Of a DNA stretch of 64,000 nt, positions 59,301 through 64,000 are shown in pieces (position 1 is the first letter of the stretch; each line of letters opens with the position of its first letter). The DNA is taken from contig JBDHHQ010000008.1 in NCBI GenBank assembly GCA_039589315.1, positions 45,430 through 109,429 on the forward strand, in the 5' to 3' direction. This DNA is from Gemmatimonadota bacterium (GTDB lineage Bacteria; Gemmatimonadota; Gemmatimonadetes; Longimicrobiales; Gaopeijiaceae). Position numbers: made by a program.

Positions 59301-62300
59301 CGGGCGTTGTCCCGGGCGCTCAAAGACCGGGAGGTCCAACGTCTTTACCTGGCCGCGTCTTGGGGCCACCTTGCTAAGAGCCCTTTGACCATCGACGGGC
59401 CCATCGGCCGGCATCCGACCGACCGGAAGAGGATGGCCGTCAGGGAGCGGGGGCGCTTCGCGCTCACCCGCTGCGCCGTGCTGGAGCGGTGGCGGGCGGC
59501 GGAGCTGCTCCGGGTTTCGCTCGGCACTGGACGCACCCATCAGATACGTGTCCACCTGTCGCACATCGGTCATCCCGTTGTCGGGGACGCCGTGTACGGC
59601 GCTGGTTGGGAGCGGGGAATGGGGGGGCAAGCTCACGCCTGGGCTCGGGAGCTGGCCCGGCGCACGCCGCGCCAGTTCCTTCACGCTGCGGAGCTGTCCT
59701 TCGAACATCCGCGAACCGGCGAGGAGCTGACCTTCGAGGCGTCGCTCCCGCCGGATCTGGCCGAGGTAGCGGCGTGGGCCAGGGAGAATCCGTAGGGGTT
59801 GGGGTGTATGACGACGCGGAGGCCGGAGGCCGAAATAGCGAGTGAGCGGGACCCCGCATAGACTAGTGAAAGGCATCGGTCCGTCGAGGAGTCACGGCGG
59901 CCGTCCACGTTGAACCGAACAGTCTGGGCGATGAGACACACAGACCTCACATCGGCTGACGAGAGCCGCCTGGAGGCCGCTCTCGAGGAGTTCACCGCGG
60001 GCTCCGGAGCCCGGTCGGCGGCTCTGGTGGACCAGCGGGGCAGCGTCCTTGCGAAAACGGGCCTCGCCTTGGGGCGAGCGGCGGATCTGGCCACACAGGC
60101 CGCCCGCCTCCACGCATCGGGTCGGCGCATCGGCGAGCTCGCCGGCTCCGGCGAGGTGCGCGAGCTGGTGGCGGTGGGCGGCGGGGGCCGCCTCACGGTG
60201 CAGGAGATGGCGAAACAGGGGGGCGCCGTCCTTCTCCTTTCGTTCTTCGATCCCGGGGCGGACGCGGGCCGCGTCTCCCGAGCGGTCGAGACCCTGCGAG
60301 GAGCCGTGGAGGGGTCCCGGTCGGGGTCGGGCCCGCTGGCTGCGCTGGAGGACACGATGCTCGAGCGGCTGGATCAGACGTTCCCGGCCGAATGAGGCAC
60401 CTGCCGATCACTGAGCCCTAGCCACCCGTGGATCTGGATCGCCAGCTCACCTTCGAGAGCTTCGTCGTCGGCCCGGCCAACCGTCTGGCCTCCGCTGCGT
60501 CTCGACGCGCGGCCGACTCGCCGGGCCGGAGCTTCAATCCCCTGTTCATCTACTCCTCGTCCGGGCTCGGGAAGACCCACCTGCTCACCGCAATCGCCAA
60601 CCAGGCCGGCCACGGGCCCGCGTCGGCGCGCGTGCTCTACAAGACCCTCGAGAGCTACCTGGACGACCTGGAGAAGGCGCTGGAGCGCGGGGAGAAGGAC
60701 TCCCTACGGGAGACGTATCGCGATCTGGACATCCTTCTTCTCGACGACGTGCAGTTCATCACGGGCCATCCCGAAGCCCAGGAGATGCTCCTCGGGACCC
60801 TGGACGCCCTGACGGGCTCCGGGAGTCAGGTGGTCCTGGCCAGCGATCGCCCCCCCGCCGACATCGACGATCTGGATGCTCGGCTGCTGTCCCGGTTCTC
60901 CGGTGGTCTGATCGTGGACATCGCGCTGCCCGAGTACGAGACCCGAGTGGCCATCGTGCTCAAGAAGGTCTCCGACCGTGGGACCGACCTGGCTGCCGGC
61001 ACCGGCGAGGCGATCGCACGCTACCCCTACGACAACATCCGGGAGCTGCAGGGCGCGCTGAACCGAGTCCTCGCCATACAGGAGATCGAGGAGCGGGAGG
61101 TGCCTCCAGAAGAGATCGTCGACATCCTCGGGCCTGCCGGTGGCAGCCGCGAGGGCAGCGAGTTCGCGTCCTTCGTTCAGGAGCTCTCCGCCACCCTGGA
61201 GACCAGCGTTTCCGACGAGGAAGAGCGCTTGCGTGCGATGGTGCGGAAAACCATGGCCGAGGCGGAGGCAGAAGGCTTCAGCGCTGCTCGGCTGGAGCGT
61301 CTGCTCCAGGGCAAGCACTCGGCCGACGAGGTGAGGGAGGCAGCCGAGAGCTTCCGCAAGGAGTTGGAACGCCTGAAGAAGGTGCGCGCCGAGCTGGATC
61401 GGATCGGCAACCCCTGGCCGGAAGCGGCTGTCGAGCTTCTCTCCAATCCCGACCGGCTGCGGGAGGCCGAGGCATTGCTCGCATCGGCCCGCGAGCGGCA
61501 TCGCCCGTTTCCACCTCTTCCAGCGGGTCCCCAGCTGCAGGAGCTGACCGATCGCTTCTCACCCCTGGCGCTGAGGGTGGCCGAACAGCTGATCAAGGAG
61601 GAGCATCCCGACTACAACCCGCTCTACGTGTGGAGCCCGGACGGCGAGCTCGGCCTGGAGCTGCAGGGCGCAGCGGGACGGACCGCCCAGGACCTTCGGC
61701 CAGAGATGCGGATCGCCCTGATCTCCGTAAAGGAGTTCGCCGGGGAGTTCATCGAATCCCTGTCCACCGGAGTCGCGGGTGCGTGGCGGGAGCGCTGGTG
61801 GACCACGGACCTGCTGTTGCTCCACGGCGCGGAGAAGCTCGCGGACACCGAGCGGGCGCAGGAGGAGTTCTTCCACCTCTTCGAGGCGCTGAAACGGACG
61901 GGCGCCAGGGTGCTCCTGTCCGCCGACCGACCGCCGTCGTCCATCGACGGTATCGAGGACCGACTGCGCACGCGCTTCGAGGGCGGGCTCGTGCTGGAGC
62001 TCGAGGAGGGAGCAGGCGTGCCGGCCGACCAGGTTTCGCGCGCTGTGCCCACGCCGCCGCCTCCGCCCAGGCCAAAGCCAACACCCCAGCCCGCTCCGCA
62101 GGTGGCGGCCCCTCGCACCGAGTGGATCCCCTCCCGCGAATCGGTGATCTGGGATTGGCCCCGCATCGTCGAGCGAGTCGCCGAGGAGGTTGGCTGATGG
62201 CCATCGAGGGCAACCTCGCCCACGTCGGGCTCGCCGACATCTGCCAGCTCCTGGCCATGGGACGGAAGACCGGCTGCCTCACGGTAAGCAACCGGCCCAG

Positions 62301-64000
62301 CTACGGGAACGTCTACTTCGGCAAGGGCCGAGTGATCTTCGCCAGCGTCCTGAACCGTCCGGACCGCTTGGGCGACTTGCTCGTCAAGAACGGGGTGATC
62401 ACCGAGGAGCAGCTGACCCGGGGTGTTGCCGCGCAAGGCAATGAACCGGGGCGGCGGTTGGGCGAGATCCTGATGGGTCAGGGCGCTCTGGTCGAAGAAG
62501 ACCTGAACCGCTTCGTCACGCTCCAGATCGAAGAGGCCGTATACCACCTCTTCGGCTGGAGTGAAGGGACGTTCCGGTTCGAGCCCGACGAGGTACCCCC
62601 GGAGGACGTCATGCTCGTGTCCATCAACGCCGAGGGCCTCCTGCTGGAGGGCGCTCGCAGGGTGGACGAGTGGAGCCTGATCGAGAAGAAGATCTCGGAC
62701 TTCGACCTGATCTTCTCGGTCGAGCATCTCCCCGACGAGAGTGACGCCGACGTCGAGTTGACCGACAATCAGAGGCGTGTCCTGCCGCTCCTCGACGGGA
62801 AGCGCACCGTGGAGGACCTGGTCGAGGCCTCGGGCCTCGTCGAGTTCGACACGGCCAAGGCCCTCTTCGGGTTGGCGCAGGCAGGCTTCGTATCGAAGAC
62901 GGGCCAGCGGGTCCGAGATCCTCTGATAGAAGACGTCTCGGAGCCGAGCGAGCTGGCTCCCGCCTACCACCGAACGGGCCTGTATACCGATGCGGCGCGG
63001 GAGTTCGAACGAGTGCTGGCATCAGATCCCTCGGACACCGACGCGCGTTTCGGGCTCGCCGTCATCGCGCTGAAGCTGGGCGCGTACCAGGATAGCCTCC
63101 GGCATCTCGACGCCCTGGATGAAGCGGTCCGGAATCGCCCGGGCGTGTTGAAGAACCGGGCTCTGGCCCTGGAGCACATGGGCCGCCTCGAGGAAGCCGA
63201 GTCGTTGCTGGACCAGGCGTTGGCAATGGACGCTGCCGACGCCGATGCCGCGTTGTCTCGGGCGATCGTCGCGTTGAAGCGCGGGGATCCGACGCAAGCC
63301 AGGCGGCGGCTGTCCGGCGCCCGATCGTTGCTCAAGAACGGCGCACCCCCCCTCTACTACGCCTACGGTGTGCTGGCCGCGGCGATGATGGGCGACCTGG
63401 AGAGTGCTGCGGCCGTTGGCGAAGAGGGGTTGAGGCGGTACCCCGAAGACACCGCCTTGCTGGTGAACCTGGGAGCGGTGCGAGAGCGCCAAGGGAAGAG
63501 CGACAACGCCGAAGCTCTCTACCTGAAGGCGGCCTCCCTGCCGAACCCCACGCCTCAAGCCCACAAGAATCTCGGGGACTTCGCGTTCCGTCGCGGAGAC
63601 GTGGCCGGAGCGCGGGCCCATTTCGAGAAGGCGGTCAACCTGGATCCTCGGCTGGGCGACGACGTGTACGCCAAGCTCGGGGAGATCGCGCTCCGGGAAG
63701 ACGACCTCGAGTGGGCGCGCATGCTCTGGCAACGAGCCCTGGAGCTCAATCCGGACAACGAGGCGGCAAAGGCGGGCGTCGAGGGGCTCGAGAAGGCCGC
63801 GGGCGAGTGAGCCTCGTCGCCGTCCTCTCCCTCCTGCTGCTGGCGATACGGGTCGGGGGAGACACACCGCAGGATCATCCTCCGTACCGAAGTCTGGAGG
63901 GTGAGCGCGCCGTGGTCTTCTATCAGGACGGTGACTCGGCGCGGGCCGCCCGATTCCTCGCGTTCGCAGAAGCCCAAACGCCCCTTCCCGGACTCCCGCC

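Follow-up and report, generated by a model that had tools for sequence, protein, structure and literature searches.

The closest described relatives of the locus analysed here fall into several groups. DnaA (TIGR00362; structures 8bv3, 2z4r, 3r8f and 2hcb) carries an AAA+ domain III that binds single-stranded DNA. Hda/HdaA, likewise DnaA-related and without DNA-binding domains, is a single module of ~230 aa that acts on the beta clamp (RIDA), and is described as carrying an N-terminal beta-clamp-binding motif and working through a box VII arginine (PMC3836487). Two AAA+ modules per chain, one of them silent, occur in the type II tandem proteins NSF, p97 and Rix7. On the signalling side, the Frz chemosensory system of Myxococcus xanthus controls polarity through MglA/MglB, and the cyanobacterial PatA-type proteins PixE and PixG have a PATAN domain with an alpha-clip insert of the MshEN type, as found in the c-di-GMP receptors MshE, PilB and PilF. 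According to a preprint, this insert is also N-terminal in pilus and secretion ATPases, PixE uses its PATAN domain to bind PilC and an N-terminal portion of PilB1, and PATAN genes often lie near mglA and mglB (bioRxiv 10.1101/2021.06.11.447907).

Here, we examined the window (a whole 64,000-nt stretch of a Gemmatimonadota genome), in which the survey's finding had placed a DnaA-derived protein and a PATAN-TPR partner at 59931..63810, positions that count within the stretch. Genes and domains are as follows, gene coordinates of the pair including the stop codon:

55611..58760, + strand, ileS (Pfam tRNA-synt_1, Anticodon_1, DUF5915)
58830..59795, + strand, rluD-like pseudouridine synthase (Pfam S4 and PseudoU_synth_2)
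59931..60395, + strand, Roadblock/LC7 (MglB-like) small protein (Pfam Robl_LC7)
60428..62197, + strand, g00913, tandem DnaA-domain-III ATPase (589 aa, GTG start)
60428..61132, + strand, g00913 module 1, residues 1-235 (AAA+ core and lid both complete, from alignment with the host DnaA)
61199..61501, + strand, g00913 helical linker domain, residues 258-358 (family-specific; all-helical at high pLDDT)
61559..62005, + strand, g00913 module 2, residues 378-526 (alpha/beta core of an AAA+ domain, lacking P-loop, Walker B and lid)
62015..62110, + strand, g00913 proline-rich disordered tether, residues 530-561 (pLDDT below 50)
62117..62194, + strand, g00913 C-terminal tail, residues 564-589 (conserved; predicted to dock in a TPR groove)
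62197..63810, + strand, g00914, PATAN-MshEN-winged-helix-TPR protein (537 aa)
62206..62676, + strand, g00914 single PATAN (DUF4388) domain, residues 4-160, split by the MshEN-type insert
62356..62541, + strand, g00914 MshEN-type (alpha-clip) four-helix insert, residues 54-115 (two 24-residue motifs)
62677..62919, + strand, g00914 winged-helix domain, residues 161-241 (VIA-align)
62947..63807, + strand, g00914 TPR solenoid, residues 251-537 (Pfam TPR families)

Pfam Bac_DnaA matches g00913 in two stretches, the best at residues 3-164 (model positions 1-162 of 162), and a genome-wide search with the same family returned both (E 2.7e-52 and 1.8e-27), which bears out the survey's finding of two DnaA domain-III copies in one 589-aa protein. 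Also confirmed was the lack of DnaA domains I and IV, as Pfam searches of the protein detected neither DnaA_N (PF11638) nor Bac_DnaA_C (PF08299), and TIGR00362 matched only internally, at model positions 103-334 of 437. The protein is DnaA-derived but, because neither domain is present, cannot be an initiator. Its TIGR00362 score of 351.3 bits passes the DnaA equivalog cut-off of 343.9 because two half-length matches are summed, and its database name of 'DnaA' is thus an annotation artefact. A separate, normal dnaA, as previously reported, lies on another contig, where it adjoins dnaN and encodes 464 aa with DnaA_N, Bac_DnaA and Bac_DnaA_C; in contrast to this complete copy, g00913 is not beside dnaN and consists of two tandem modules, a new helical domain and a predicted TPR-docking tail.

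Module 1 is a complete AAA+ domain of the DnaA type, lid included. Alignment with the host DnaA locates its Walker A motif at G46-H51 (GLGKTH), Walker B at D106/D107 (LLLDDV), sensor I at D140-P143 (SDRPP), box VII at R152/R156 (RLLSRF) and sensor II at R205 (NIRELQGAL); G46, G48, K49, H51, D106, R152 and R156 are invariant among 64 family sequences. In module 2, DGELGLEL and LLLHGA stand at the Walker A and B positions, while ADRPP and RLRTRF are kept, such that sensor I and the box VII arginines are retained (across the same 64 sequences, R512 is invariant, while R514 and R516 are each conserved at 90% or more). The description of one live and one dead AAA+ domain therefore holds for this genome on motif alignment but not as a family design, nor does that of a built-in dimer with a dead half, since the second P-loop, and with it both ATP sites, is intact in sister families; the dead second site and the trimmed locus are a derived state. 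Although g00913 resembles NSF, p97 and Rix7 here in having two modules per chain with one silent, it belongs to a different AAA+ clade, its module 2 lacks a lid, and whole-chain comparisons with p97 and Rix7 gave poor matches (TM 0.21-0.30, rmsd above 20 A). The linker domain between the modules carries conserved motifs and matched no family in a Pfam search. Conservation is also pronounced in the C-terminal tail (W566 0.86, P568 0.84, E571 0.95, V573 0.88, W577 0.98, P578 0.95 and E586 0.94).

In the structure model of g00913 (pLDDT 87.8, pTM 0.49), the best fold match was B. subtilis DnaA domain III (8bv3_A; TM 0.94 target-normalised, rmsd 1.5 A, 40% identity), with 3r8f and the Hda structures 3bos and 5x06 also among the matches. 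Since a pTM of 0.49 leaves the relative placement of the AAA+ modules unfixed, a role for module 2 as arginine-finger donor is one that we infer. Phylogenetic reconstruction placed both modules on long branches separate from the canonical DnaAs, a group (support 89/90) that also contains those of Gemmatimonadota.

These relationships bear on the proposal, raised by the survey, that g00913 tunes DnaA in the manner of Hda. Spelled out, g00913 would dock on DnaA-ATP by AAA+ contacts of the DnaA type, and R156 or R516 would stimulate hydrolysis or cap DnaA oligomers; if so, origin firing would be tied to c-di-GMP or polarity. DnaA domain III is the nearest relative of both modules (40% identity with the B. 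subtilis protein), and arginine-finger positions are conserved in both (R156 invariant, R516 at 90% or more); Hda itself acts through its box VII arginine (PMC3836487). Moreover, past Walker B, module 2 retains a DnaA-like motif that module 1 no longer has. However, TIGR03420 scored 99.6 bits, well short of its 194.8-bit cut-off, both modules branch outside the canonical DnaA group, the family's gene context is one of signalling with no replication gene as a conserved neighbour in either locus layout, and dnaA is kept without the pair in many genomes of the host family. Family consensus positions 5-7, which correspond to the N-terminal place of the clamp-binding motif in Hda, are variable. With no direct support for DnaA tuning emerging, we regard this explanation as quite improbable.

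Full-length g00914 shows DUF4388 as two stretches because the insert splits the domain, and its N-terminal 160-aa piece gives one PF14332/DUF4388 match over 1-122 of 122 (E 2.2e-39, 134.7 bits against a cut-off of 25); what had been described as a double PATAN is hence a single domain, modelled at pLDDT 91.7 and pTM 0.83. NCBIfam NF053729 scored 50 bits on g00914 (cut-off 38), and the insert itself matched MshE (5htl_A, E 3.1e-7) and PilB (5tsg/6olj, E 1.6e-7) by phmmer and 5htl_B by Foldseek (rmsd 1.3 A, 46% identity), with a Z of 7.3 in VIA structural alignment; the modelled insert overlays the c-di-GMP-bound forms of MshE and PilF with an rmsd of 1.3-2.0 A. The MshEN motif, RLGxx(L/V/I)(L/V/I)xxG(L/V/I)(L/V/I)xxxxLxxxLxxQ, spans 24 residues and occurs twice in tandem (PMC5013675). 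Both copies were found in g00914, at residues 57-80 and 87-110, with V replacing the second-last L in each and the motif arginines, glycines and glutamines conserved across 35 orthologues. The spacer between them is six residues long, compared with a reported five in MshE. Together, the superposition and motifs suggest that the insert should bind c-di-GMP at this predicted site, and the host genome has nine GGDEF matches. Relative to PatA-type and MshEN proteins, g00914 has neither a receiver nor a secretion-ATPase domain, and possesses a winged helix and a TPR solenoid instead. The survey's finding had missed this c-di-GMP-binding-type insert.

The winged helix aligned best (VIA-align) with 8adl_S (Z 9.2, rmsd 2.8 A, 75 residues aligned) and 8fw5_B (Z 9.0), which are GATOR1 and SEA-complex subunits, and less well with MarR/Fur-type winged helices (Z 5-6). 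Its presence in g00914 might suggest a nucleic acid-bound scaffold, in which g00913 assembles on single-stranded DNA or RNA and the winged helix anchors the complex to the nucleoid. Consistent with such a scaffold, single-stranded DNA is bound by DnaA domain III, the 3r8f structure is one of the fold matches, and R476 of module 2 (90% or more) and a hydrophobic residue sit, by alignment, at the putative single-strand-contact positions of DnaA. Conversely, glutamate occupies both putative positions in module 1, the sole live one in this genome; winged helices also bind proteins, as the GATOR1 and SEA-complex matches illustrate, and g00913 is without the DNA-binding domain IV. A scaffold of this kind is very unlikely.

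The pairing of g00913 with a PATAN-TPR gene, as originally claimed, is upheld by overlap, adjacency and matched presence and absence in the host family. The TGA of g00913 and the ATG of g00914 share one nucleotide (TGATG), the same class of stop/start overlap occurs in 27 of 63 evaluable loci drawn from overlapping locus sets, and the gap between the two genes never exceeds 69 nt among these 63. A repeat of the related-locus search with g00913 reproduced the earlier counts of 365 relatives, of which the best 80 were kept and 28 of those are full-length; 26 of the 28 are titled Gemmatimonad* or Longimicrobiales and two 'uncultured bacterium'. In tblastn searches of the 28 loci, again in agreement with the survey, the PATAN-TPR gene was downstream in 27, the sole miss being a 1.7-kb contig, and the rluD-like gene was present in 26; ileS was found in 24. 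Another set of loci placed the PATAN-TPR gene downstream of the ATPase gene in 30 of 30.

Modelling of the g00913-g00914 complex gave a score of 0.82 in three runs, against 0.00 for the best of three controls. Among 157 solved complexes 116 score this high, as do 2 among 215 mismatched pairs, counts that apply roughly, given that the complex was modelled from own-made alignments. The runs share at least 68% of contacts, with partner pLDDT at least 73, and the confident interface sets the g00913 tail (564-589), the only part of that protein involved, against the g00914 TPR groove (281-490). Within the groove, N320 (0.91), N424 (0.86), Q454 (0.94), K457 (0.83), N458 (0.83) and D461 (1.00) are conserved, and interface residues of the TPR region are slightly more conserved than the rest (0.63 versus 0.57, p = 0.058). 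Many TPR-peptide complexes have solved structures, and the score may owe something to likeness with these. From the model, the tail is predicted to dock in the TPR groove.

To assess occurrence, the family-specific g00913 linker and the g00914 N-terminus were used as probes over the same 401 genomes, matching 236 and 293, respectively. Within the host family, both genes are in the same 22 of 70 genomes, the g00914 matches being exactly 22 of the 23 linker matches and the 23rd marginal (E 6.7e-4). Neither probe detected the pair in the genomes of families f7 (0/30) and f9 (0/4), or in sampled genomes of other classes (f10-f12, 0/19). The pair is thus common in one class and not phylum-wide as had been proposed, with about two thirds of the host family lacking it, including many genomes in which dnaA is present.

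Upstream of g00913, the Roadblock/LC7 protein noted by the survey was verified by Pfam (Robl_LC7, PF03259; E 1e-7, 32.1 bits against a cut-off of 23), its ORF ending 32 nt before the ATPase gene; it scored 23.4 bits on NCBIfam MglB (NF052242), below the equivalog cut-off of 200. The earlier count of this neighbour in 2 of 28 loci was a BLAST undercount, as Pfam and HMM searches found Roadblock directly upstream in 11 of 28, and a second host-family sample has it at the same position in 5 of 23 loci. In nine loci of families f2, f3, f4, f5 and f8, the pair is flanked by Roadblock and CheR/CheB/CheW, with an MglA-like GTPase directly upstream in seven and an eighth (L117) added by tblastn. These sister-family clusters hold MglA-like GTPase, Roadblock, CheA/W/R/B/C/D and TPR/PATAN proteins around the pair, and one f2 locus (Roadblock-ATPase-PATAN/TPR-CheW-peptidase) is midway to the host layout. 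Because sister families carry the pair among such genes, descent favours the suggested tie with a polarity module of the Roadblock/MglA type.

The sister loci thus share MglA-like GTPase, Roadblock and Che genes with M. xanthus-type systems, for which our literature search found no DnaA-like ATPase; nor did it find a paper on the ATPase/PATAN-TPR pair. The host genome likewise has an mglB-mglA pair, on another contig and of the general type only, but no CheW domain was found in its assembly (95% complete, 288 contigs), nor a cluster-type GTPase there or at the g00913 locus, and g00914 is its only PATAN protein. In the host genome, the polarity link is therefore one of descent only. The immediate neighbours in this genome are housekeeping genes (ileS and rluD), ileS being a conserved upstream neighbour of the pair in the host family.

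Downstream genes could point elsewhere, toward regulation by the pair of a membrane Peptidase_MA_2 protein and a sigma-54 response regulator in envelope or proteolytic signalling. Peptidase_MA_2 lies downstream of the pair in 23 of 28 host-family loci and an NtrC-like regulator in 7 of 28, and the peptidase closes the longer cluster in sister loci L117, L124 and L125. In sister families, however, Che genes stand between pair and peptidase, and published work ties PATAN and MshEN to pilus motors, not proteases (bioRxiv 10.1101/2021.06.11.447907). We consider a peptidase-directed role unlikely.

Taken together, g00913 and g00914 appear to form a signalling unit outside replication initiation, most likely an ATP- and c-di-GMP-gated polarity or motility pair, a reading to which we assign a probability of roughly 0.5. 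In such a unit, g00914 would serve as sensor and adaptor, the MshEN-type insert of its PATAN domain sensing c-di-GMP and its TPR groove gripping the conserved tail of g00913, itself on a flexible proline-rich tether. As the nucleotide switch, g00913 would bind and hydrolyse ATP in the DnaA manner through module 1, while module 2, catalytically dead in the host lineage with its arginine-finger face retained, could offer a fixed counterpart for head-to-tail AAA+ contacts of the DnaA type, whether intra- or intermolecular. ATP may thereby set how the complex is shaped or assembled. By descent, the pair is what remains, as a core, of a larger Gemmatimonadota cluster of MglA-like GTPase, Roadblock, PATAN/TPR and Frz-like chemosensory proteins; from this ancestry, we infer that its output lies most likely in cell polarity or type-IV-pilus-type surface behaviour. 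In keeping with the published link of PATAN and the alpha-clip insert to pilus ATPases, the host genome has seven T2SSE-family ATPase matches over cut-off.

A more specific version, which we put forward tentatively as possible, is that the duplicated initiator ATPase core forms the ATP-driven core of a polarity/chemosensory pathway, undergoing DnaA-style assembly by arginine-finger contacts on a c-di-GMP-gated PATAN-TPR scaffold beside an MglA-type GTPase. This would constitute a new kind of cytoplasmic switch, with an initiator-clade AAA+ protein working without DNA. Since its contact faces are still compatible with DnaA, g00913 might also interact with DnaA itself, linking polarity or c-di-GMP state to replication.

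The window ends, with its contig, in a run of co-directional genes comprising ileS, an rluD-like gene, a Roadblock/LC7 gene, g00913 (a tandem DnaA-type ATPase of 589 aa) and its partner g00914 (537 aa). The survey's finding was given in window coordinates, which are also used here.

Co-directional genes at the contig end
55611-58760, co-directional with the pair, ileS
58830-59795, co-directional with the pair, rluD-like gene
59931-60395, co-directional with the pair, Roadblock/LC7 gene (Pfam 32.1 bits versus a cut-off of 23)
60428-62197, co-directional with its neighbours, g00913
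62197-63810, co-directional with its neighbours, g00914

The stop codon of g00913 (TGA) overlaps the g00914 start codon (ATG) by one base (TGATG), and the contig ends 190 nt past g00914. The region 3' of g00914 was therefore taken from a relative with 91% identity, in which the pair is followed by a Peptidase_MA_2 gene, an NtrC-like sigma-54 regulator and a beta-lactamase-like gene. A scan of 58700-64000 returned no promoter-like sites and three terminator-like sites, all within the Roadblock ORF, versus 1.9 expected. The frame of g00914 is also open for 189 codons 5' of its real ATG, within g00913 (61630-62196), a high-GC artefact that inflates its mechanical ORF to 726 aa. The Roadblock/LC7 gene reported by the survey indeed precedes g00913, but its conservation had been underestimated: rather than 2 of 28 loci, 11/28 carry a Roadblock gene 5' of the ATPase, as do 5/23 loci of another set, both sets being drawn from the window's family.

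Pfam searches matched Bac_DnaA twice in g00913 and found no match to DnaA domain I or IV, and the TIGR00362 match is limited to model positions 103-334 of 437. From alignment with the genome's own DnaA, module 1 (residues 1-235) was found to possess Walker A (GLGKTH), Walker B (LLLDDV), sensor I (SDRPP) and box VII (RLLSRF) motifs, as well as sensor II and the lid. Module 2 (approximately 378-526) comprises the alpha/beta core only, with DGELGLEL instead of Walker A and LLLHGA instead of Walker B, while ADRPP and RLRTRF are kept. Among 64 family sequences, G46, G48, K49, H51, D106, R152, R156 and R512 are invariant, and R205, R514 and R516 are conserved in at least 90%. These observations bear out the survey's description of two DnaA domain-III copies, intact in the first and with Walker A and B lost in the second, without domains I and IV; likewise, the separate, normal DnaA (464 aa) is encoded beside dnaN on another contig and possesses all three domains. 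Of the two aligned positions that correspond to putative single-strand-DNA contacts of DnaA, both are glutamate in the live module 1; in the dead module 2 they remain a hydrophobic residue and, within a DnaA-like motif, an arginine (R476, at least 90% conserved). An IS21-type istA/istB pair elsewhere in the genome (L004, contig C244) gave a weak Bac_DnaA match and is unrelated to the pair.

In the AlphaFold2 model of g00913 (pLDDT 87.8, pTM 0.49), five parts are seen: two AAA+ modules, both well folded, a confidently modelled helical linker (258-358), a disordered, proline-rich segment (530-561) and a short tail. Searched alone against Pfam, the linker gave no match under E 0.02. The best fold match was domain III of Bacillus subtilis DnaA (8bv3_A; target-normalised TM 0.94, rmsd 1.5 A, 40% identity). 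Structures of Hda, the DnaA-inactivating relative of DnaA, ranked below it, and p97- and Rix7-type tandem ATPases were loose matches only. g00913 may be an Hda-like regulator, but nothing specific was found in favour of this. For DnaA and Hda, the box VII arginine is established as a contact between DnaA-type modules (PMC3836487). Module 2 of g00913 retains this arginine face despite the loss of its own ATP site, and by analogy we infer that g00913 would use ATP through DnaA-type module contacts.

Only through the sum of two half-length matches does g00913 exceed the TIGR00362 equivalog cut-off (351.3 versus 343.9 bits), which accounts for its being called, for instance, 'chromosomal replication initiator protein' in source records, JGI names included. 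Annotations thereby carry a second 'replication initiator' in the genome, which a g00913-type protein cannot be.

Comparison across families of the phylum (f1, the window's own, to f12) revealed the history of the second ATP site. All loci examined from f4 (five), f5 (five, from four genomes) and f8 (one) have an intact second P-loop (GxGK[ST]) and an intact, acidic Walker B. Both are also intact in 3/5 f2 loci, the P-loop being lost in the other two. Among the 23 loci of f1, the second P-loop is lost in 18, unmatched by the pattern in three, not evaluable in two and intact in none. Only one module is recognisable in the f3 and f6 loci; L126:8628-10283 (f3) and L127 (f6) are divergent one-module versions with open frames of 582 and 412 aa, respectively, and L126 has DEAH at Walker B and has lost sensor I and box VII. 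An unrooted maximum-likelihood tree, built from 59 core sequences over 166 columns, names no donor. In it, the module-1 sequences all group together (support 100/99), as do the module-2 sequences (100/98) and the canonical DnaAs (89/90), six of the latter being from Gemmatimonadota; a long branch (1.11) leads to the dead module-2 group. The inner branching of the module-1 and module-2 groups is mirrored, and the tandem is therefore old within the class, its modules having evolved together in a single gene. Judged from these sequences, the dead second site of g00913 is a derived state.

The survey had also ascribed two PATAN domains plus TPRs to g00914. The TPRs are present (residues 251-537); the double PATAN was rejected, as the two DUF4388 stretches reported for the full-length protein are one domain split by an insert, and a 160-aa N-terminal piece gives a single match (1-122 of 122). 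The insert (residues 54-115) exceeds the NCBIfam NF053729 cut-off (50 versus 38 bits), aligns to Vibrio cholerae MshE (5htl_A, E 3.1e-7) and to PilB N-termini (E 1.6e-7), and superposes on c-di-GMP-bound MshE and PilF with an rmsd of 1.3-2.0 A. Both copies of the 24-residue MshEN motif, as defined in PMC5013675, were found in the insert, separated by a 6-residue spacer, and the motif residues are conserved among 35 g00914 orthologues. From sequence and model, the insert is thus an MshEN-type module and a predicted c-di-GMP binder. A preprint (10.1101/2021.06.11.447907) describes the PATAN insert as two helical repeats, with which the N-termini of pilus and secretion ATPases also begin; it further states that PixE binds PilB1 and PilC through its PATAN domain, and that PATAN genes often have mglA and mglB nearby. 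Given nine GGDEF matches, c-di-GMP signalling is available in this genome.

In the model of the g00914 N-terminus (pLDDT 91.7, pTM 0.83), the PATAN core gave no Foldseek match at E 0.001 or better, and the MshEN insert alone matched at E 1.8e-3; the VIA-align listing was taken up by the winged helix and barely covers the PATAN core. The winged helix (residues 161-241; 62677-62919) best matches the winged-helix portions of SEA-complex and GATOR1 subunits (Z 9.2 and 9.0), which are regulators of small GTPases, a likeness that may reflect just a common fold.

Coupling of the two proteins is indicated first by gene order. A PATAN-TPR gene lies 3' of the ATPase gene in 27/28 related loci, the sole miss being a 1.7-kb contig, and in 30/30 loci of a second, genome-search set. 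By regex estimate over two overlapping locus sets, the gap ranges from -11 to +69 nt in the 63 evaluable of 71 loci, 27 of which share the stop/start overlap class of the window. Furthermore, a complex model of whole g00914 with g00913 residues 235-589 scored 0.82 in three runs (best of three controls, 0.00), a value reached by 116/157 solved complexes and 2/215 mismatched pairs, although this calibration is rough for self-made alignments such as those used here. The runs share at least 68% of contacts, with a partner pLDDT of at least 73, and the tail of g00913 (564-589) is predicted to sit in the TPR groove of g00914 (281-490). After the AAA+ motifs, this tail is the best-conserved region of g00913 (E571 0.95, W577 0.98, P578 0.95), and the groove residues it touches include the conserved N320, N424, Q454, K457, N458 and D461. 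Over its full extent, the interface shows no significant excess of conservation over the remaining TPR (0.63 versus 0.57, p = 0.058). Solved structures include many TPR-peptide complexes, and part of the model's performance may therefore reflect likeness to them.

The two genes were also traced through a fixed set of 401 genomes from the phylum, using the linker as probe and counting matches to the g00914 N-terminus at E 1e-30 or better.

Genomes matched by family, without the window's genome (linker; g00914 N-terminus)
f1 (window's family): 23/70; 22/70
f2: 5/7; 6/7
f3: 4/4; 4/4
f4: 155/166; 163/166
f5: 41/93; 90/93
f6: 2/2; 2/2
f7: 0/30; 0/30
f8: 5/5; 5/5
f9: 0/4; 0/4
f10-f12: 0/19; 0/19

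Including the window's genome, the linker was found in 236/401 genomes and the g00914 N-terminus in 293/401. The linker, a single-sequence query, under-counts in f5, where another search suggests more members. In f1 the 22 g00914-positive genomes are the linker-positive set minus one marginal match (E 6.7e-4). Four unpublished genomes (G057 and G182 in f4, G097 in f3, G157 in f5) are each positive with both probes; without them the totals become 232/397 and 289/397. Beyond this sample, querying 1.84 billion representatives with the linker yielded only 71 matches, and clusters of 590-660 aa are given in the Atlas as 'commonest Gemmatimonadota'. Ten weak full-length matches were looked up; four were named, two of these with an organism, both Longimicrobiales.

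Annotation of nine loci from the sister families f2, f3, f4, f5 and f8 placed the pair inside a larger co-directional cluster.

Gene order of the sister-family cluster
1, TPR protein of ~900 aa
2, second PATAN-TPR protein, ~380 aa
3, TPR and Roadblock proteins
4, MglA-like small GTPase; in three or more loci its stop and the ATPase start share 1-4 nt
5, tandem ATPase
6, PATAN-MshEN-TPR protein
7, CheR, sometimes CheD, CheB and CheW; CheA and CheC nearby in one locus
8, Peptidase_MA_2 gene, in three loci

Cluster MglA copies whose stop overlaps the ATPase start include L124:10369-11004, L126:10531-11142 and L128:8957-9559. Sister genomes possess two MglA-like genes, one away from the cluster and 75-78% identical to the mglA of the window's genome, and the cluster copy, with 55-59% identity to the general mglA. 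The f2 locus L125 is an intermediate toward the window's layout, comprising Roadblock, ATPase, PATAN/TPR, CheW and peptidase genes without the GTPase. Neither the window's genome nor that of L125 has the cluster MglA paralogue, each possessing the general one only. In the window's genome, mglA and an mglB-like Roadblock gene directly follow dnaX-ybaB in a housekeeping setting (L133:5947-10323, contig C1). Genome-wide searches of this assembly (95.19% complete, 5.07% contamination) found no CheW domain, g00914 as the sole PATAN protein, and seven T2SSE-family ATPases over cut-off.

Taken together, the data fit a two-protein unit of g00913 and g00914, in which g00913 would be a DnaA-type ATP switch and g00914 a c-di-GMP-sensing PATAN-TPR adaptor gripping it by the tail. 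On this reading, the unit is an inheritance from an MglA/Roadblock/Che polarity cluster, retained in the window's family after the other parts departed the locus. The DnaA-type AAA+ domains known so far (DnaA, Hda, DnaC, IstB) have roles in DNA replication or transposition. If this reading is true, the family of g00913 would place a DnaA-derived ATPase in a signalling and polarity setting, conserved across hundreds of species of a class widespread in soil and sediment and tied to predicted c-di-GMP sensing. The succession from both sites live, to the second dead, to a trimmed cluster also provides a natural series for probing the role of the second ATP site. A literature search, with coverage outside subscription journals, returned Hda/HdaA and HdaB as known DnaA-related proteins, no published description of a tandem DnaA-like protein, and no paper on DnaA-like proteins with PATAN or MglA.

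A Peptidase_MA_2 gene (HExxH-type) was also observed to end both trimmed and full layouts (L006:9434-10516, L117:12334-13269, L124:3060-4091 and L125:5749-6744), and may be part of the system.
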